A stretch of DNA of 32,000 bases from contig JBNLCE010000005.1 of NCBI GenBank assembly GCA_050303655.1, forward strand, positions 1 to 32,000. Reading direction: 5' to 3'. This DNA is from Patescibacteria group bacterium. Lineage in GTDB: Bacteria; Patescibacteriota; Patescibacteriia; 2-12-FULL-60-25. Position 1 is the stretch's first letter. Each line of letters starts with the position of its first letter. Position numbers and translations under genes: made by a program. This document shows, piece after piece, positions 7,927-23,129 of this stretch. The notes under the pieces are model-generated. The model did not search any database, was not told where the DNA came from, and saw only the letters and a list, made by a program, of their open reading frames with translations.

Positions 7927-10104
7927 TTATGACGAATAGTCCCGAATCAATTTTTCGATGAGCTCGGGAAGCGTTGTTGTGGTGCGCCATCCAAACTTCA
8001 TCTCTGCGCGATCCACGGCCGCACGGCTCACCGGCACATCCCATGGCCGCCCCTCCGACGGCTCCACACGCGGTTCAATGTGACGCTTATCGAGCCGCTC
8101 CTGCATGTGCTGCACAAACTCAATCAGCGATGTTGAAACACCGGTTCCAATATTCATAATCTCTCCGGCGCCGCGGAAGTTGTGTGTCGACATCATCGCA
8201 TCCACCACATCATCCACGTGGATAAAATCACGTTCAAAATCCGGGTTGGAAAGTGTTGGCGACGTGTCACTCATAAGCGCGCGGTACACAGCCGGCCCAA
8301 GACGATTCTCACCTTCACTTCCTCCGCACACGCTGAAGAATCGGAAGACGGTCAACGGACGTCCGGTGCGCTTTGCCCACTCCTGCGCCGCGCGCGTTGA
8401 CGCAAGCTTGGACTTTCCATACGGCGAATTCGGGTTGCACGGATCATTCTCGCGCATGGTTCCGCCGCTTGTCACGCCATATTCCGTCCAGCTCCCCGCA
8501 ACCACAACCGGGCACTCCGGAAGAGCCTCCAGGGCTGCGAGCAGATTCATCGTTCCTTCGGCGTTGGATTTGATTAATTCATCAACCGTTGTGTTGCGAT
8601 CGGGTCGCACGCCCGCCGCCGCAAGATGGAATACCGCATCAAACTCAAAGCCACGGAATGCACCCTGTACCTCTTCCGCATTCGCCAGATTCACACGAAA
8701 CGCACGAAGCCCGCGCGCAGACCGCGACAATGGATACACAATCGCTCCCTCGCCGTTTAAGCGCTCCACCAGACGAGAACCGATTGTTCCCGTTGCCCCT
8801 GTCACAAGTACGCGCTTCCCGCTCCACGGCTTCGCCGGAGCCACAGCATCTTTTGTTGATGGGACGGCGACCGAAGCTCCTGTCTTTTTTGTGTTCAAAA
8901 ATTCAGCAAATGCCGCCTTCATCCGCTCCACATCTTCGTTGGACAATCCCTGATGACACCCAACGAGCACTGAGCCACGCATCACCTGATCGGCATTGGG
9001 GTACCCCTCCGGAAGCACGCGAGACGCTCGGTCGCGGAACGCCGGCTGACGAAGAACGTTGCCCGTAAAGATCGGTCGCGTTTGAATACCGCGATCTTCC
9101 AAGAACCGAACAAGATCCATGCGATGGAACGGCGCGTCATCACGCACAACCAACGGAAACGCCAGCCACACATGTTCGGCGTTTGGATTTGATTTTGGGA
9201 GGACAAAAAAGGACTCGTATTGCTTAAAAAAGGCGAGCAGTTCGTTGAAATGACGCTGTCGCGTGTCATAAAAACCCTTAAACCGATCGAGCTGCGCGAG
9301 ACCAAACGCTGCGGAAATATCTGTCGCTTGAAAATTGTAACCAACCTCACCGAAGACAAACTTCCGGTCGTACGGAATCCCGTCGATATTCGCGTCAAAA
9401 CGATGGTTCGCGGTTTCACTTTCATCCACCGCTGATGACCGACCCCATCCGGCCAACACTCGCGCGCGCTGATACCACGCGTCATCATTCACACATACCA
9501 TGCCGCCGTTTCCGGCTGCCGTAATAATGTGCGAGGCATAAAAACTGGTTGTTGAAATGTGCGTATATGCTCCGGTCGGTTTTCCGTAGAGCGTGGCACC
9601 AAGCGTGTCGCAGGAATCCTCAACCAACCATAACCCGTGCGCATCTGCGATCTCTGAAAGTGCGCGGTAATCCGGAATGTTTCCCATGAGAGACGGAACC
9701 ATAATCGCCTTTGTGTTTGGCGTAATCAGCCGCTCAATCTGCGAAATGTCGATCTGATAATCGCCCGGCACAATATCCGTAAACGCAGGCACAAGCCCCT
9801 TTTGCAGAATTGGAGCCACCGTCGTACCAAATGTGAGCGCCGGAGTAATCACCTCGCTGCCTGCGGGCAAATCCAAAAGCTCAAACGCAAGCAAGTTGGC
9901 CGAGCTCCCGGAGTTCACGAATACACCCTTCTTTTTTCCGAAAAGCTCCGCGATCCGCGCTTCAAAGACACGTGCCTTCTCCCCATGACAAATCATGGGT
10001 GTTTTAAGTACATCTGCCACGGCGTTCCGCTCCTCATCGCCGAAGACGGCGAGAGCATACGGGATCCGAGGATGTCCTGCCGAATCCTTCCTAAACAATT
10101 TCAT
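7927..10104 (-). CDS. Fusion protein: DegT/RfbH/ColD-type sugar 3-dehydrase-like domain + extended-SDR epimerase/reductase domain
   Basis: The start is moved to the ATG at 10104 (GGAGG upstream; the track's 46-aa extension overlaps the upstream gene). The N-terminal domain has SFYASHIIT (His at codon 9529-9531 where aminotransferases have the PLP Lys) and the RfbH-like WGR...HRF...GYN..TD..AA.GLAQL. The C-terminal domain (about 7930-8820) has VTGATGTIGSRL and PYGKSK (YxxxK). Confidence 0.85.
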   Translation of the reverse strand: MKLFRKDSAGHPRIPYALAVFGDEERNAVADVLKTPMICHGEKARVFEARIAELFGKKKGVFVNSGSSANLLAFELLDLPAGSEVITPALTFGTTVAPILQKGLVPAFTDIVPGDYQIDISQIERLITPNTKAIMVPSLMGNIPDYRALSEIADAHGLWLVEDSCDTLGATLYGKPTGAYTHISTTSFYASHIITAAGNGGMVCVNDDAWYQRARVLAGWGRSSAVDESETANHRFDANIDGIPYDRKFVFGEVGYNFQATDISAAFGLAQLDRFKGFYDTRQRHFNELLAFFKQYESFFVLPKSNPNAEHVWLAFPLVVRDDAPFHRMDLVRFLEDRGIQTRPIFTGNVLRQPAFRDRASRVLPEGYPNADQVMRGSVLVGCHQGLSNEDVERMKAAFAEFLNTKKTGASVAVPSTKDAVAPAKPWSGKRVLVTGATGTIGSRLVERLNGEGAIVYPLSRSARGLRAFRVNLANAEEVQGAFRGFEFDAVFHLAAAGVRPDRNTTVDELIKSNAEGTMNLLAALEALPECPVVVAGSWTEYGVTSGGTMRENDPCNPNSPYGKSKLASTRAAQEWAKRTGRPLTVFRFFSVCGGSEGENRLGPAVYRALMSDTSPTLSNPDFERDFIHVDDVVDAMMSTHNFRGAGEIMNIGTGVSTSLIEFVQHMQERLDKRHIEPRVEPSEGRPWDVPVSRAAVDRAEMKFGWRTTTTLPELIEKLIRDYSS

Positions 10105-17242: not shown

Positions 17243-17258
17243 CCGCACATCACCTCCA

Positions 17259-17296
17259 AGAGGCTTCGACGGACAACCGACGAGGCCTCTTTTTTA
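17259..17296. terminator. Bidirectional terminator between purH and sortase
   Basis: AGAGGCTTCG-12 nt loop-CGAGGCCTCT followed by TTTTTT. Confidence 0.7.
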
Positions 17297-17926
17297 TTCC
17301 TGTACCAACTCCCCGATCACAAGAAACCTCCGGAGCGCGGTGCCAATGGGGTAGGACGTCTGCACCGTCAGGAGCGACTCCGAGCCGTCACCCTGGTCCA
17401 GCACAGAGAGGTCTTTCGGCAGTACAACCTTTGTTTCACGAATACGATATCGAAATGGCGTCCCTTCACCGTCTGTCACCGTCACCTCATCTCCGACTTT
17501 CAAATTCGGAAGATTGGCAAAAACATATTTAAAATCCCCCGCTCGCCACGCGTAATCACTTGAATGGCCAAAGATGTACACGTTCCCCGGCTGTCCAGGC
17601 TTCGCAGTTCCCGGGAAATGCACGACGCCGTTCTCGAGAGCTTTTTGAAACGCGGCTTCATTCGATTCCCTAATGTAGACAATGGGCGCGTCCACACCGA
17701 TTTTGGGAATCAAGATCCGATTTGATTCGTACACACGAACCGGCCCCTCCGGCGCCGCGTCAACCAAAAACGGATCCCGCTGACCTGCGTCAACGGAATC
17801 CGTATTCGTGTTTCGATCAAGATAGTAGCGTACCCGCGCCTCAAAGAATCCGTAGTTCAAGGAAACGATGATTGCGAGTGCGCCGAGACCGGCGAGCGCT
17901 ACTTTTTGCGCTTGCGTCCGATCCAT
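17294..17926 (-). CDS. Sortase-family protein lacking the catalytic cysteine
   Basis: N-terminal TM anchor, IPKIGVDAPIV, GNVYIFGHSS (catalytic His). The TLxTC motif reads LLTVQTSYP (Ser codon TCC at 17354-17356), followed by the conserved Arg (ALRRFLV). The protein contains no Cys at all. It overlaps the 3' end of the LPRTG substrate gene by 28 nt. Confidence 0.85.
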   Translation of the reverse strand: MDRTQAQKVALAGLGALAIIVSLNYGFFEARVRYYLDRNTNTDSVDAGQRDPFLVDAAPEGPVRVYESNRILIPKIGVDAPIVYIRESNEAAFQKALENGVVHFPGTAKPGQPGNVYIFGHSSDYAWRAGDFKYVFANLPNLKVGDEVTVTDGEGTPFRYRIRETKVVLPKDLSVLDQGDGSESLLTVQTSYPIGTALRRFLVIGELVQE

Positions 17927-20900
17927 AACAGAGGCACCGCCGAAAGAAGAAGGCTTGCCGCCGGTGTTCCCGTGCGTGGAAGCTCGGTTACAGGGTCTGT
18001 TGACTCTTCCGCCGGATCATCCGTAGCCTCATCGGAGGCACCAAGCACGATCGGTGTCGGTTCTGGTGACTCCGGAGTACCTCCACCCGTTGCCGGTGGG
18101 TTTGGATATGACGTTGCTTCCCAGCGAGGCGTACTTCCGCCCGCGCTTCCTCCGCCTCCTGAAGAACCTCCGCCTCCAGAAGATCCACCACCTCCGCCGG
18201 TGTCACCCGGGTCACCACCACCATCACCAGGATCTCCTCCACCACCATCGCCGGGGTCACCGCCTCCGCCGTCTCCTGGATCTCCTCCACCACCATCACC
18301 GGGGTCGTCGTCTGATTCGGCACACGTAAGGATGATGTTATCCAAGAAGCCGCCATTTTGGTCATCATCACCTGCCGCCGCAAACGTCACCTTGTGCGTT
18401 CCGGCAGTCGTTCCTGTTGCTGACATGGTGTACAACACCCACGCCGAAGTGTCTGTGCTGTGCACCGTGCCCATCAACACGTCGTCGAAGTACACGTCGA
18501 TTTGGTTATCATTCTCATCCGAGGTGCGAGGGCGATACCAGAAGGAAAGTTCGTAATCACCACCATCAAGATCCACTGTCTGAGACATTGTGCTGTTTGA
18601 TGTTCCTCCGTCCACCAAAGGATCCACGTGGCTATCGAGCTCGGCGTAGTGAACGCCGTCCTGAGCCGGAACAACCTTTCCATCGTACTGAATCTCAATT
18701 CCAGGGCCGTCTTCTGTAATCCAAGAGTCTCCGTCGCCATCTGTGACGTCCGGAAGGATACCGAAGACATCCCACTGCTGAACCGAGTTCACGAGATCGT
18801 TCAAGAGATTGCCCCAAATAATACCTTCGCGGTCGTCCACCTGCTCAAAGCTTCCGTTCAAAAGAAGGTTCGGGTCGGTGCACTGATCCTCTTCTTCAAC
18901 CGGTGCGCGGTATACGTTACGAACGACAAGCGTCCGGTTTGGCACACGCGAGCTAAGTACAATGTGACCGTCTGAATCATTGTTTCGCTCTCCGTCATCC
19001 GACGGATCATCGTTAAACAATTCGCCGGAGTACAAGAATGCGTCATCAATGGTCATGTAGTCGACCACGTTTTGGTCGTTGTAGTACGGAGCTGAGTACG
19101 AGGACGTTGCACCCGTGATCACCTCTTCGCCGTAGAAGTAGTTTCCAAACTCGAGGTTGTCATACGTCACACACTCCGCGTCCGGAACGTCATCGCCATC
19201 CAGCAAATCCGTGTTGTAACTCAACGGAGCCGTGAATGTGGTGGTTGGGAGAATATCTGCGGCAGTAAATCCATCCGGTGCATCAACACCTGACACAGCG
19301 AACTCGTCGCCCGTTGATTCAGAGCCGTCGATGATGGCACCGAGCTCATCTGTAAGAACTTTACAAATCGTAATGGAGCCATACTCCGGATCTGGGTCCG
19401 GATCTGGGTCTGGGTCTGGGTCCGTGTCAGCACATGCAAGAATAATGTTGTCCAAAAATCCACCGAGCTGATTTTCCGTGCCGGCGGCGGCAAACGTCAC
19501 CTTGTGCAGCCCAGGCGTTACACCCGTAAGCTCGATGGTCTGCAAGCTCCACGTAGACGTGTCCGTGTTGCTCACCGTGCCAACAAGCACGTCATCAACG
19601 TACACCTCGATCTGGTTATCATCGTCAGACGTGGTGCGTGGACGGTACCAGAACGAGAGATCGTATTCTCCACCTTCGAGGAGAACGAACTGCGACATTG
19701 TTGTGTTCGTTTGGTTACCGTATGTGCTGTTTGGGTGGCTGTCGAGTTCCACATAGTGTGAGCCCTCCTGCGCATCAACCACGGTTCCGTCGTACTGAAC
19801 TTCGATTCCAGATCCTTCTTCCGTAAACCACGAGTATCCATCTCCATCCATGACATCAGGAAGCGCGCCAAACACGTCCCATGTCTTTACCGCAGACACA
19901 AGCGCGTTCAAAAGAGTTCCCCACACTTCACCAATGGTGTCGTCGGTTTCCTCAAACCCGCCATTCAAAAGAAGGTTTGGATCGGTACACGAATCCTGTG
20001 CGATAAAGACATTGTGCACCCAAAGCGTCTGATCTGGTTTTTCGCTGGTGAGCTCCATGTGTCCATCTGAGCCTGGATTTGCATTTACATCGTCAGATGG
20101 ATCGTCGTTAAAGAGCTCATCGTAGTACACATCGGCTTCAGAACCCTTAGGCCCGTCATCAACATAGACCGGATCTGCAAACGAATCCGCCATATCACCC
20201 TCAATAGCTTCCGGAGCGTAGAAATAATCTCCAAGCGGGAGGTCATAGTACGTGACGCAGTATGCATCAAGCTCATTCACATCTCCGTAGGTATCTTTGT
20301 TGGGTGTGTATGGCGTGGAAAGAATCATTGTCGGAAAATCAGCCGCAGCCGTCATACCCGCCGGCGCCGGTGCTCCGGTGATCGTAAACATTTGTCCCGG
20401 AAAAAATACGCCGTCAAGCACGTTGCCGGCTTCATCCGTCAACATCTTACATACGGTAATTGAACCAGTCTCGTCCTCATCCGGCGGTTCAGAAGGGTCT
20501 CCGTCGCAAGGGCCAACATAGTCTAATTCATGACCCGCAGTGCCAACTTCATGAGTGTTATAACCGGCTTCACCCGGATAGATTGTGTGCGCATTTTCAG
20601 GGCTACCATTGGGCACGTGACAAATCGGCTGGGGCCCATCCACTTCAGGAACGGCCGGGGCTTGATCACCCGGATCCTCTTCCGGAACATCCGGCTCTGG
20701 ATCACCTGGTTCAGACGGATCCTCGGAAGGATCATTGCCCGGATCATCTTCCGGCTCTTCAACTTTGCCTTCGGAACATGCACCAACAGTGTCGCCATGA
20801 TTCAAGTGCGTATCCAACGCCGAATCATCAATACTGATGGTTTCTTGGGCGTCTGTACCCGCCTCATGGCAGATGGTAATTGGTGCGGCAATCGCCACCG

Positions 20901-20964
20901 GACCCACAAGTTGCCCAAAGGCAAAAATGGGGATTAAAAACGAGACCAGTCTCTTCGACATCAT
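17899..20964 (-). CDS. Large LPXTG-anchored surface protein with internal duplication
   Basis: Start moved to the ATG at 20964 (MMSKRLVSFLIPIFAFGQLVGPVAIAAP signal peptide). C-terminal sorting signal: LPRTG (17968-17982), a hydrophobic stretch, then RKRKK. There are two ICH...HGD..G.C mini-domains, and two ~350-aa repeats each made of a SpaA/prealbumin-like segment (GSIT[VI]CK) plus a jelly-roll/DUF642-like segment (CTDPNLLLNG.FE...GGFLDNIIL.C). Confidence 0.85.
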   Translation of the reverse strand: MMSKRLVSFLIPIFAFGQLVGPVAIAAPITICHEAGTDAQETISIDDSALDTHLNHGDTVGACSEGKVEEPEDDPGNDPSEDPSEPGDPEPDVPEEDPGDQAPAVPEVDGPQPICHVPNGSPENAHTIYPGEAGYNTHEVGTAGHELDYVGPCDGDPSEPPDEDETGSITVCKMLTDEAGNVLDGVFFPGQMFTITGAPAPAGMTAAADFPTMILSTPYTPNKDTYGDVNELDAYCVTYYDLPLGDYFYAPEAIEGDMADSFADPVYVDDGPKGSEADVYYDELFNDDPSDDVNANPGSDGHMELTSEKPDQTLWVHNVFIAQDSCTDPNLLLNGGFEETDDTIGEVWGTLLNALVSAVKTWDVFGALPDVMDGDGYSWFTEEGSGIEVQYDGTVVDAQEGSHYVELDSHPNSTYGNQTNTTMSQFVLLEGGEYDLSFWYRPRTTSDDDNQIEVYVDDVLVGTVSNTDTSTWSLQTIELTGVTPGLHKVTFAAAGTENQLGGFLDNIILACADTDPDPDPDPDPDPEYGSITICKVLTDELGAIIDGSESTGDEFAVSGVDAPDGFTAADILPTTTFTAPLSYNTDLLDGDDVPDAECVTYDNLEFGNYFYGEEVITGATSSYSAPYYNDQNVVDYMTIDDAFLYSGELFNDDPSDDGERNNDSDGHIVLSSRVPNRTLVVRNVYRAPVEEEDQCTDPNLLLNGSFEQVDDREGIIWGNLLNDLVNSVQQWDVFGILPDVTDGDGDSWITEDGPGIEIQYDGKVVPAQDGVHYAELDSHVDPLVDGGTSNSTMSQTVDLDGGDYELSFWYRPRTSDENDNQIDVYFDDVLMGTVHSTDTSAWVLYTMSATGTTAGTHKVTFAAAGDDDQNGGFLDNIILTCAESDDDPGDGGGGDPGDGGGGDPGDGGGGDPGDGGGDPGDTGGGGGSSGGGGSSGGGGSAGGSTPRWEATSYPNPPATGGGTPESPEPTPIVLGASDEATDDPAEESTDPVTELPRTGTPAASLLLSAVPLLWIGRKRKK
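18136..18312 (-). repeat. Gly/Asp low-complexity tandem repeat (PGDGGGGD x ~5, then GGGGS-like)
   Basis: Direct 24-bp periodicity is visible in the DNA. It encodes the stalk between the repeat domains and the sorting signal. Confidence 0.85.
18322..20466 (-). repeat. Intragenic tandem duplication (repeat 2: 18322-19380; repeat 1: 19432-20466) joined by a (DP)n linker at 19387-19428
   Basis: The two ~350-aa protein blocks align end to end (for example SFWYRPRT..D.DNQI.VY.DDVL.GTV, HKVTFAAAG...GGFLDNIIL.CA). Confidence 0.85.
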
Positions 20965-21095
20965 ATGTATTCGTAAATTGTTACAATTCGCGTTCATTGT
21001 ATGTACAACGTAGCAATAAATCCAGCATCGGGACACAGCCCGGCAAGATCGAGCAACTTTAAGGGAAGTTCAGTGAATATGCAAGGGATATATAA

Positions 21096-21146: not shown

Positions 21147-21776
21147 CTAGGAACCGTCTAGACACGGAATGCCCAGAACACACAAAAAGAAATACGCATC
21201 AGGGCCCGGCGCTACATGCAGCCGCCATCCTCCGTCCTTAGCTGGACTGAAGAAGAGCGCGAGCTCTTCACCATCCGCCGTAAGGACCGTGCTGCCCGGA
21301 ACATAGTAGGTTCTGCGGCCGACTGGCGGACGCGCATCCGTCCACGATACAGCGAGCTCGATATTCGCACCCTCGTGCCCGTGCTCCTTCAGGCTACGCA
21401 CAATCCTCTCGGGAGATTCGATTGGCCCGACGTGTTTGAACAGCGTAAGCTGGCAACGCGGCTGATCATACGGGATCTGACGCGCGGGTCCGGGCCGCCA
21501 CTTCAGCCTCATCCCCGAATCCAAATTGTTGCTCGGGAACTTCTCCATCAGCCCTTCGACAGTTAGAAGGATCGGCGATGGAGTTGGTACAAAGGACATG
21601 TCCACCGGCCGGAGAATATCCTCTTCCTGAAACGAAGGCCTATGCACGGGCTGCCCTGTTGGCGCCGTAGCTCGAGGCTTCGGCAAAAAATCCGCCAGAA
21701 CGCCGGCGACCTTCGCAACCACATCCACCGCCGTTAAAAACAAAAACGTCGGCAACTGCTTCAACTTCTCGCTCAT
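21147..21776 (-). CDS. Hypothetical protein
   Basis: Start moved to the ATG at 21776 (AAAGGAG-6 nt-ATG). The track's N-terminal extension reads through an intergenic palindromic element. No family recognised. Confidence 0.6.
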   Translation of the reverse strand: MSEKLKQLPTFLFLTAVDVVAKVAGVLADFLPKPRATAPTGQPVHRPSFQEEDILRPVDMSFVPTPSPILLTVEGLMEKFPSNNLDSGMRLKWRPGPARQIPYDQPRCQLTLFKHVGPIESPERIVRSLKEHGHEGANIELAVSWTDARPPVGRRTYYVPGSTVLTADGEELALFFSPAKDGGWRLHVAPGPDAYFFLCVLGIPCLDGS

Positions 21777-21856
21777 GTCTTTCTCCTTTCTCGAAAGAAC
21801 ACTCCACCACGGAGTTGGCAATAGCAAAGCACATTTCATCCGTTTTGTCACGCCCG

Positions 21857-21865
21857 TGGTATAAT
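21857..21865 (+). promoter_or_regulatory. Extended -10 element (TGGTATAAT)
   Basis: Perfect TGnTATAAT ~110 nt upstream of the ATG at 21975. The 10-mer GTGGTATAAT recurs at the nrd promoter. Confidence 0.45.
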
Positions 21866-21891
21866 TTTCTTGTATCAATCTCAATAAATGT

Positions 21892-21960
21892 GTCATTCCC
21901 CGACTTGATCGGGGAATCCAGAAATCGAAGCTGGATCCCCGGGTCAAGCCCGAGGATGAC
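21892..21960. repeat. 69-bp double-hairpin palindromic element (REP/MITE-like)
   Basis: GTCAT-TCCCCGA-CTTGA-TCGGGGA-ATCCAG / 9 nt / CTGGAT-CCCCGGG-TCAAG-CCCGAGG-ATGAC. The two halves are inverted copies with the same loop and different self-complementary stems. Confidence 0.7.
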
Positions 21961-21974
21961 AAAACAAATTTTTT

Positions 21975-23129
21975 ATGAAAAAACTTCAAATATTCGCGAT
22001 CTCCTTTTTAGGGATCGCAACACTCATCGCCCCCGCATCTGCCGCGCGCATGGTCGGAGGCGACCAAGTCAGTTTGCGTGAAAGCGATCCGATTCAAGAG
22101 GACGTCTATGCGGCCGGCGGCATCGTGTCAGTGGCAAGCGACGTTCAAGGCGATGTTCTTGCCGCAGGTGGAAACGTCTACATTAACGGCGTAACCGACG
22201 GCGATGTTCATGTGGTAGGTGGTGATATCGAAATCGACGGCACCGTACGTGGTGACGTACGCGTCGCCGGTGGACAAATTGAAATTGGTGGCATTATCGA
22301 GGAAGACCTCGTTGTGTTTGGAGGGTTTATCCGCATCAAGCCGGATGCAGATCTCCGCGGAAACGTTCACATTGTTGGTGGAATGGTCATGTTTGAAGGT
22401 ACTGCCTCGGGAGTACTCAGTTTTTACGGCGGTCAAGCGCAAATCAACGGCGTGCTCCACGGACCGATATACATTGAAGCCGATGAGGTCGATATTCAAA
22501 GCGGCGCCATGCTCGACCTGGGCGGTATGGTGAAGTCCTCCAGCGACATCCGTGTGGATGAAAACGCCACAATCTCGGGCGAACTGCAGAAGGAGAGGTT
22601 GGAACGAGACATTAAATCCCCGAAAAACAAAGAAGAGGCAGCTCGTGATTTTGCCGGGTTGATTCTTAGTCTCGTTGTTGCCGGCTACCTCATCATGCTC
22701 GTAACCGGGCTCGTAGCCCTCAAGGCGTTCCCCCGCTCACTCAATGGACGCGCCGGCGAGGCATGTAAGGATTTTTGGCCAAATGTGGGTCGAGGATTTA
22801 TCGCGGCCGTTGTTGTTCCAATTGCGGTATTCCTGCTCTTCCTCACGGTCTTCGGATCATTTATCGGTGCATTCGTGGGTGTTGCCTTTGCACTGCTGGT
22901 GATGGTCGCCAAGCTCCTGACGTTCTTCATTCTTGGTTCAGCCATTTGGACACATCTCTTTAAGCAAAAAGATGGCGGCGCAAATTGGAAGACACTTCTC
23001 ATCGGAATCGTGGCGGCGTTCATTCTCCAAATGATCCCGATCTTCGGATGGATCACGCTCTGGATCTTCTTCTTGGCCGGTCTTGGCACGATGACCAACC
23101 ACGTGCTGAAAGAAATGAAAAAGAAATAG
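21975..23129 (+). CDS. Secreted bactofilin-like (polymer-forming cytoskeletal family) beta-helix repeat protein with C-terminal polytopic membrane domain
   Basis: Signal peptide (APASAA), then ~200 aa of G-D-V-x-V-x-GG-x-[IV] repeats, then ~5 TM helices. Confidence 0.7.
   Translation: MKKLQIFAISFLGIATLIAPASAARMVGGDQVSLRESDPIQEDVYAAGGIVSVASDVQGDVLAAGGNVYINGVTDGDVHVVGGDIEIDGTVRGDVRVAGGQIEIGGIIEEDLVVFGGFIRIKPDADLRGNVHIVGGMVMFEGTASGVLSFYGGQAQINGVLHGPIYIEADEVDIQSGAMLDLGGMVKSSSDIRVDENATISGELQKERLERDIKSPKNKEEAARDFAGLILSLVVAGYLIMLVTGLVALKAFPRSLNGRAGEACKDFWPNVGRGFIAAVVVPIAVFLLFLTVFGSFIGAFVGVAFALLVMVAKLLTFFILGSAIWTHLFKQKDGGANWKTLLIGIVAAFILQMIPIFGWITLWIFFLAGLGTMTNHVLKEMKKK

Follow-up and report, generated by a model that had tools for sequence, protein, structure and literature searches.

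A sortase homologue with serine at the catalytic cysteine position, encoded beside an LPRTG surface protein in Patescibacteria

Sortases, the enzymes that anchor proteins to the cell wall, are described in textbooks as cysteine transpeptidases; they serve as drug targets and are in wide use for protein ligation, and to our knowledge no characterised sortase works independently of its cysteine. Does a sortase homologue that has serine in that position, in a protein with no cysteine at all, still act as a sortase? The question is raised by a gene in the window, the whole 32,000-nt stretch of DNA analysed here, which comes from the ultra-small Patescibacteria. A preliminary description, made from sequence alone, had proposed three explanations: a serine-nucleophile sortase, a dead pseudo-enzyme or a single-base assembly error. 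We favour an active serine-nucleophile sortase dedicated to its LPRTG neighbour, and put the probability of this reading at roughly 0.6; catalysis is inferred, and there are no biochemical data. In the literature searched, the coverage of which was incomplete, we found no description of natural Ser-sortases or of sortase pseudo-enzymes, and papers on CPR bacteria mention only "a sortase".

A sortase-fold protein without cysteine and its LPRTG neighbour

The features of the locus are as follows.

17899..20964, minus strand: substrate gene for a secreted surface protein (~1021 aa from M25) that has two large repeats in addition to a signal peptide
17902..17982, minus strand: cell-wall sorting signal, made up of LPRTG (17968-17982), a hydrophobic helix and an RKRKK tail
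17899..17926, minus strand: 28-nt overlap between the substrate stop region and the sortase start, from ORF coordinates
17294..17926, minus strand: Ser-type sortase gene, 210 aa, no Cys, with an N-terminal membrane anchor and a sortase beta-barrel
17843..17902, minus strand: signal-anchor helix, residues ~9-28, VALAGLGALAIIVSLNYGFF, read from sequence
17564..17566, minus strand: codon of His121 in the GHSS motif, the catalytic His equivalent, invariant in homologues and aligned to solved sortases
17555..17557, minus strand: codon of Asp124 in GHSSD, specific to the Ser clade, its role as a third triad residue only inferred
17354..17356, minus strand: codon TCC of Ser191 at the catalytic Cys position, where LQTSYP replaces TLxTC
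17327..17329, minus strand: codon of Arg200, the catalytic Arg equivalent, invariant and aligned to the sortase Arg
17258..17291, minus strand: stable hairpin directly 3' of the sortase stop (RNA fold -23.9 kcal/mol, z -3.0)

The window protein contains the segments IPKIGVDAPIV, NVYIFGHSS, LLTVQTSYP and GTALRRFLV, and its Cys count is zero. It matches the Pfam Sortase profile PF04203 over its full length (profile positions 1-125; E 4.9e-24, 84.9 bits) and passes the generic NCBIfam sortase_fam model TIGR01076 (54.1 bits, cut-off 39.35). On the NCBIfam sortase class models (A-F and GN) it stays far under every cut-off, scoring 39-55 bits overall where 140-166 are needed (D 54.2/165, C 48.6/160, E 47.4/160, F 39/166). 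When the protein was aligned to solved sortases with phmmer, Ser191 fell on the catalytic Cys (LLTVQTSYPIG of the query on LLTLVTCTPLG of 8t28, A. oris SrtC2), and the other two catalytic residues, His and Arg, were matched by His121 and Arg200. These alignments confirmed the Ser191 column and did not place the catalytic position elsewhere.

Structure prediction gave the same assignment. For an AlphaFold2 model built from a 64-sequence alignment (pLDDT 88.4), the top Foldseek matches in the PDB were all sortases: 4d70 (SrtD, E 1e-12), 2xwg (SrtC), SrtE and SrtA. Strand 114-120 is followed by His121, strand 184-191 ends in Ser191 and strand 200-207 begins with Arg200; in established sortase structures these strand ends are the canonical places of His, Cys and Arg. 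Profile match, structure match, anchor, His and Arg all meet what defines the sortase superfamily (PF04203, MEROPS C60 fold), with the His expected at the end of strand beta4 present as His121 and the Arg expected at the start of strand beta8 present as Arg200. The catalytic Cys, expected in TLxTC at the end of strand beta7, is absent; Ser191 in LQTSYP takes its place, and no other position of the protein holds a Cys. Fold and residue equivalences are thus shown, and the protein is a real sortase-fold homologue that lacks the family-defining Cys and lies outside classes A-F; its transpeptidase activity is inferred. A second match in the window, "QASWP" at 9888-9902, lies inside a 52-aa ORF and was rejected as a chance occurrence.

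The model places helices at residues 3-23 and 25-44 with high pLDDT, and the N-terminus of the protein aligns with those of full-length homologues. By inference from this topology, the membrane anchor (hydrophobic residues 9-28) would place the sortase domain outside the cytoplasm.

The substrate ORF spans 17899-21036, with M25 as its likely start, a Sec-type signal peptide and the ending ...TELPRTGTPAASLLLSAVPLLWIGRKRKK. Its C-terminus, ...TELPRTG-TPAASLLLSAVPLLWIG-RKRKK, is a complete tripartite wall-sorting signal, so that the adjacent gene does supply the kind of substrate expected of a sortase, in which an LPXTG-type motif is combined with a hydrophobic helix and a basic tail. Profile searches of the protein gave weak choice-of-anchor C and J matches, and 155 aa of it align at 41% identity with an LPRTG protein that adjoins another Ser sortase. 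In other substrates a conserved VLGA element stands immediately before LPRTG; in this one it is set further away, an acidic insert of ~22 residues (SDEATDDPAEESTDPVTE) at 17983-18050 separating IVLGAS from LPRTG.

The substrate stop codon (17899-17901) lies 28 nt inside the sortase ORF, an overlap that may point to translational coupling of the two genes. The hairpin at 17258..17291 sits between the sortase gene and a convergent purH-like gene, and we infer that it acts as a terminator. Given the overlap and the hairpin after the sortase stop, the substrate and sortase genes look like a single operon. A promoter and terminator consensus scan found nothing beyond shuffle expectation, and base composition over 12-26 kb shows no anomaly. 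The upstream side of the substrate gene holds an unannotated 280-aa ORF (21147-21989, minus strand) and a divergent gene for a 384-aa protein (21975-23129, plus strand). The latter combines a signal peptide and C-terminal membrane helices with a repetitive Gly/Asp-rich region that resembles a beta-helix, and homologues 31-32% identical to it occur in two genomes of the same family.

These results bear out the preliminary observation in full. Its sortase layout at 17294-17926, with motifs, anchor, His and Arg, held by ORF, PF04203, phmmer and AlphaFold2 evidence. So did the Ser (TCC, 17354-17356) in the TLxTC Cys column of a 210-aa protein without Cys, the 28-nt overlap with a ~1020-aa protein ending in LPRTG, a hydrophobic stretch and RKRKK, and the intact pairing with a substrate.

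The serine position across homologues and a cysteine-type sister clade

Serine at this position is the rule among close homologues. A word-index search returned 120 of them at 42-66% identity, every one with Ser in QTS[YWF]P. Because a search of this kind could favour the motif, we added an index-free HMMER scan of 1.84 billion representatives, which yielded 8072 matches at E <= 0.001. Among the best 150, 115 have Ser (LQTS[YW]P with GHSSD) and 35 have Cys (L[MIV]TC.P with GHSS[NYG]), and the Cys-type sequences start only below ~E 1e-35. Orthologues therefore carry Ser and are not uniformly Cys. The counterpart of His121 is invariant in 120/120 word-index homologues and in 150/150 of the best index-free ones, and that of Arg200 is invariant as well.

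The codon has not stood still. Across 28 other genomes all four TCN codons (TCC, TCT, TCA and TCG) are used for this Ser, and AGC once; the residue has therefore persisted while its codon underwent extensive synonymous substitution. Codons of the TCN type predominate, which is consistent with an origin by a TGY-to-TCY transversion, probably in a single step.

We define the Ser-type clade operationally by GHSSD and LQTS[YW]P.GTA..R, a length of ~200 aa and clustering apart from Cys sortases. The window protein qualifies by motifs, by tree and by its score on the clade profile (270 bits, against at most 184 bits for Cys-type matches). Its nearest relatives outside the clade form a sister clade of Patescibacteria Cys-type "GHSS" sortases (P0203, P0226, P0255, loci L002-L031), at ~41% average identity. 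The two clades are alike in length, N-terminal anchor, GHSS, L.T[nucleophile].P.GT..R and the His and Arg, and His121, Ser122, Ser123, Thr190, Pro193, Gly195, Thr196 and Arg200 are common to both. They differ at five positions that are fixed in the Ser clade: Ser191, where the sister clade has its Cys nucleophile; Gln189, at -2 from it (M/I/V in the Cys clade); Asp124, directly after GHSS (N/Y/G); Ala197 (N/S/T); and Pro140 (D/E/N). Asp124 itself is Asp in 108 of the 115 Ser-clade representatives and in 2 of the 35 Cys-clade ones. The Ser-clade-specific changes Q189, D124, A197 and P140 cluster at the active site; their roles are inferred.

In a maximum-likelihood tree of 51 Ser and 35 Cys domains, computed with the motif columns removed, the Ser/Cys split takes two changes, a figure that none of 500 label shuffles matched; the starred branches do not exclude one change. 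All but one of the Cys sequences (34/35) share the same side of one branch. The exception, P0232 (234 aa), combines ITLITCYPIGT with a Ser-clade-like GHSSDY and is weakly placed inside the Ser clade; it could be an intermediate or a reversion.

Constraint in the Ser clade is not relaxed relative to its Cys sister clade. Two Ser-clade sequences are on average 48% identical and two Cys-clade sequences 46%, and the columns conserved at 95% or more number 18 and 21, respectively. Clade-wide invariance of the catalytic positions is shown. Proteins without any Cys make up 79 of the 115 Ser-clade sequences.

Genomic setting of the Ser-type sortases

The source genome (917 kb in 33 contigs, 97.6% complete, 0% contamination; G000) contains exactly one sortase-domain match, on which the Pfam profile and the clade profile agree. 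Across the whole genome one protein has a convincing wall-sorting signal, and it is the sortase's neighbour. A search of the genome for a second, canonical sortase found none; neither here nor in G208, a genome of the same class, is there a Cys sortase, and both are Ser-only. The source genome encodes MurG, MraY and three PBPs and therefore makes peptidoglycan. As the sortase is the only one in the genome, any LPRTG processing there must fall to it, and the genome speaks directly against a role of Ser-sortases as mere helpers of a Cys sortase.

Sortase domains are present in 357 of 401 sampled genomes of the phylum. Ser-type sortases, called at >195 bits on the clade profile, occur in ~29 of the 401, concentrated in families f29, f36, f93 and f112, with G208 and the source genome in addition. 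None of the four other genomes of the source genome's family has a sortase domain (0/4), and few genomes of its class have one; the sortase-substrate pair was therefore probably acquired laterally, an inference from sporadic presence for which no insertion site is defined. In an empty-site and synteny check, which used the purH-like ORF and the 384-aa membrane protein in the four same-family genomes and G208, synteny was not conserved. Only G386 has both flanking genes, 34 kb apart and at 32-54% identity.

We surveyed +/-8 kb around 28 Ser-type genes. At 12 of the 28 loci the gene directly upstream encodes a large LPRTG (once LPKTG) protein and either overlaps the sortase gene or ends 0-120 nt before it, and at two further loci an LPRTG protein lies a few kb away. 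The passenger domains of these substrates are mosaic and only partly homologous; what they share is the C-terminal signal, P.VLGA.T.LPRTG followed by a helix and a basic tail. Among Cys-type loci, for which 1.5-kb flanks only were available, 1 of 30 has an adjacent LPxTG protein. Three proteins, P0129 (517 aa), P0137 (673 aa) and P0161 (919 aa), join substrate and enzyme in frame in a single predicted ORF in the order LPRTG, helix, basic tail, second helix, Ser-sortase domain; they are either Rosetta-stone fusions or the result of lost stops in overlapping gene pairs such as that of the window.

Ser-sortases also occur as tandem paralogue pairs, at L064:6825-10211 (G190) and L070:7932-9255 (G362). 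In the G190 tandem each paralogue is preceded by an LPRTG protein of its own (454 aa and 112 aa).

A second setting is cell-wall precursor synthesis. At ~11 loci of family f36 the Ser-sortase gene directly follows and overlaps murG in a Pfam-confirmed murD-ftsW-murG cluster (for example L068:8015-12221; also L066, L070, L076, L079, L080, L082, L083, L085, L086 and L088). The overlap with murG ties the Ser-sortase to the synthesis of lipid II, which classical sortases use as their acceptor. Linkage to LPRTG proteins and to murG is shown; the acceptor used by Ser-sortases is inferred. When three f36 genomes, complete or nearly so, and G208 were scanned for LPRTG patterns, only chance matches came back.

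Further observations concern individual genomes. The f36 genomes with murG-linked Ser-sortases also carry a separate Cys sortase. G208 belongs to family f5, and its Ser-sortase is not murG-linked. In G023 (complete, 700 kb) a whole-genome scan found a sole sorting-signal protein, which ends in ...TLPVTGGSARRWLGVLLVSFALAGVVFWERRKKLLH (LPVTG). It is encoded by a 660-aa ORF on the plus strand of L129 (G023:C1:297001-317000), a long way from either sortase of this genome, the Cys-type one (~112 kb) or the murG-linked Ser-type one (~691 kb).

Proposed mechanism, rival readings and known counterparts

We propose that the window encodes a membrane-anchored sortase of a Patescibacteria clade in which Ser has replaced the catalytic Cys, in a two-gene operon with a dedicated upstream LPRTG surface protein. 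Sec would export the substrate, and its C-terminal helix and RKRKK tail would hold it in the membrane. The sortase is predicted to bind the extended signal VLGA..T.LPRTG, with His121 activating Ser191, possibly aided by polarisation from Asp124, while stabilisation of the transition state would fall to Arg200 and Thr190. Ser191 would then attack the Thr-Gly bond to give an acyl-O-ester enzyme intermediate, which the amine of a peptidoglycan precursor (lipid II) would resolve, fixing the protein to the wall. Asp124 and Gln189 are candidate adjustments to serine chemistry and, by inference alone, might act as a triad acid or take an oxyanion or orienting role.

We favour the active-enzyme reading because conservation is unrelaxed, His and Arg are invariant, LPRTG proteins and murG are linked to the gene, fusions exist and no second sortase is present. 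The use of Ser191 as nucleophile remains an inference. A bolder form of this reading takes the protein for a Ser191-His121 serine transpeptidase that anchors LPRTG proteins by way of an O-ester acyl-enzyme, with Asp124 possibly completing a Ser-His-Asp triad and Gln189 tuning it. This would be an oxidation-insensitive and hitherto undescribed sortase chemistry, and the only sorting machinery of the source genome. We hold this joint reading, in which activity is inferred, to be only slightly more likely than not, and the Ser-His-Asp geometry is itself inferred, without side-chain distances.

The main rival is a conserved pseudo-enzyme that performs no transpeptidation and is kept as an LPRTG-binding partner, whether as a holdase, as a retention or presentation factor or as a regulator of surface display, the substrate staying membrane-anchored by its C-terminal helix. 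This remains possible. The defining nucleophile is missing, and Cys-to-Ser or Cys-to-Ala mutants of studied sortases are not known to be active, so the sortase fold does not automatically support serine chemistry. For sortase Cys-to-Ser replacements we found no activity data in the literature searched, where C184S SrtA served only as a Cys-less spin-label scaffold. Most Ser-sortase genomes also encode Cys sortases, which could conceivably do the chemistry there, and four genomes checked (three of f36, and G208) have Ser-type members without an LPRTG protein. Against the pseudo-enzyme stand the invariance of His121, Arg200, Thr190 and the Ser, conservation equal to that of the Cys sister clade, and clade-wide fixation of substitutions near the active site; in pseudo-enzymes the catalytic positions usually drift. 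The source genome and G208, moreover, have no Cys sortase to help. Computation does not settle the choice between Ser-nucleophile enzyme and pseudo-enzyme that the preliminary description had left open, but the comparative evidence leans towards an active enzyme.

An active enzyme with chemistry other than classical sorting appears unlikely. It could be a hydrolase whose cut at LPRT|G sets the protein free, it could rely on a different nucleophile or acceptor, or its murG-linked members could act on peptidoglycan precursors. Ester intermediates hydrolyse readily, ~11 loci lie in the murD-ftsW-murG cluster and the three f36 genomes scanned lack an LPRTG protein, and the GHSS serines are also invariant. 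Those serines, however, are common to the Cys sister clade and so are not a replacement nucleophile, and the substrates keep a full tripartite wall-sorting signal, which simple release would not need. The remaining explanation, a sequencing or assembly error or a recent inactivating TGC-to-TCC mutation in a Cys-type sortase, has in its favour that TCC is one transversion from TGC. Even without read data it can be all but dismissed: the close homologues, down to 42% identity, have Ser together with co-varying Q189, Y192 and D124 (120/120), Cys-type sequences are only more distant (from E ~1e-35) and have different flanking motifs, and other genomes use all the TCN codons. The assembly-error option of the preliminary description thus failed on homologues and codon variety.

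If the Ser-sortases are active, a large and strictly conserved Ser clade would show that the sortase fold can run on a serine nucleophile, would point to Gln at -2 and Asp after GHSS as compensating residues, and could yield thiol-independent, oxidation-resistant ligases. For Patescibacteria biology they represent a probable route by which giant surface proteins, candidate host-attachment factors of these episymbionts, are fixed to the wall.

Known enzymes offer a precedent for the chemistry. DD-transpeptidases (PBPs) use serine where LD-transpeptidases use cysteine, and the PA protease clan includes members with Ser or Cys nucleophiles. They provide, respectively, precedents for Ser acyl-enzyme transpeptidation on wall precursors and for a Cys/Ser switch within one fold; the PBP and PA folds are unrelated to that of sortase, and the analogy extends to chemistry only. 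In fold, the closest comparators are sortases of classes D, E and C: C. perfringens SrtD (4d70), A. oris SrtC (2xwg/8t28) and the Streptomyces and Thermobifida SrtE (5go5/9m2g). They share the eight-stranded barrel with the window protein (Foldseek E 1e-12 to 1e-10; target-normalised TM-score 0.6-0.7; 26-32% identity), and their His and Arg align with its own, but all are cysteine transpeptidases, and the class C lid motif is not seen in the window protein.

In organisation, the window recalls the dedicated sortase-substrate pairs of Gram-positive bacteria, such as S. aureus SrtB-IsdC, which use a characteristic variant of the sorting motif. Here too one sortase is encoded beside one cognate substrate. 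The window pair differs in that its enzyme has no Cys, in that its motif is LPRTG, of a type that has a conserved VLGA..T element before it, and in that its sortase is the only one in the genome. A one-enzyme, one-substrate genome and sporadic presence within the family are particular to this window. With its single Ser-sortase and single LPRTG substrate, and in the absence of a Cys sortase, it is a clean test case provided by nature.
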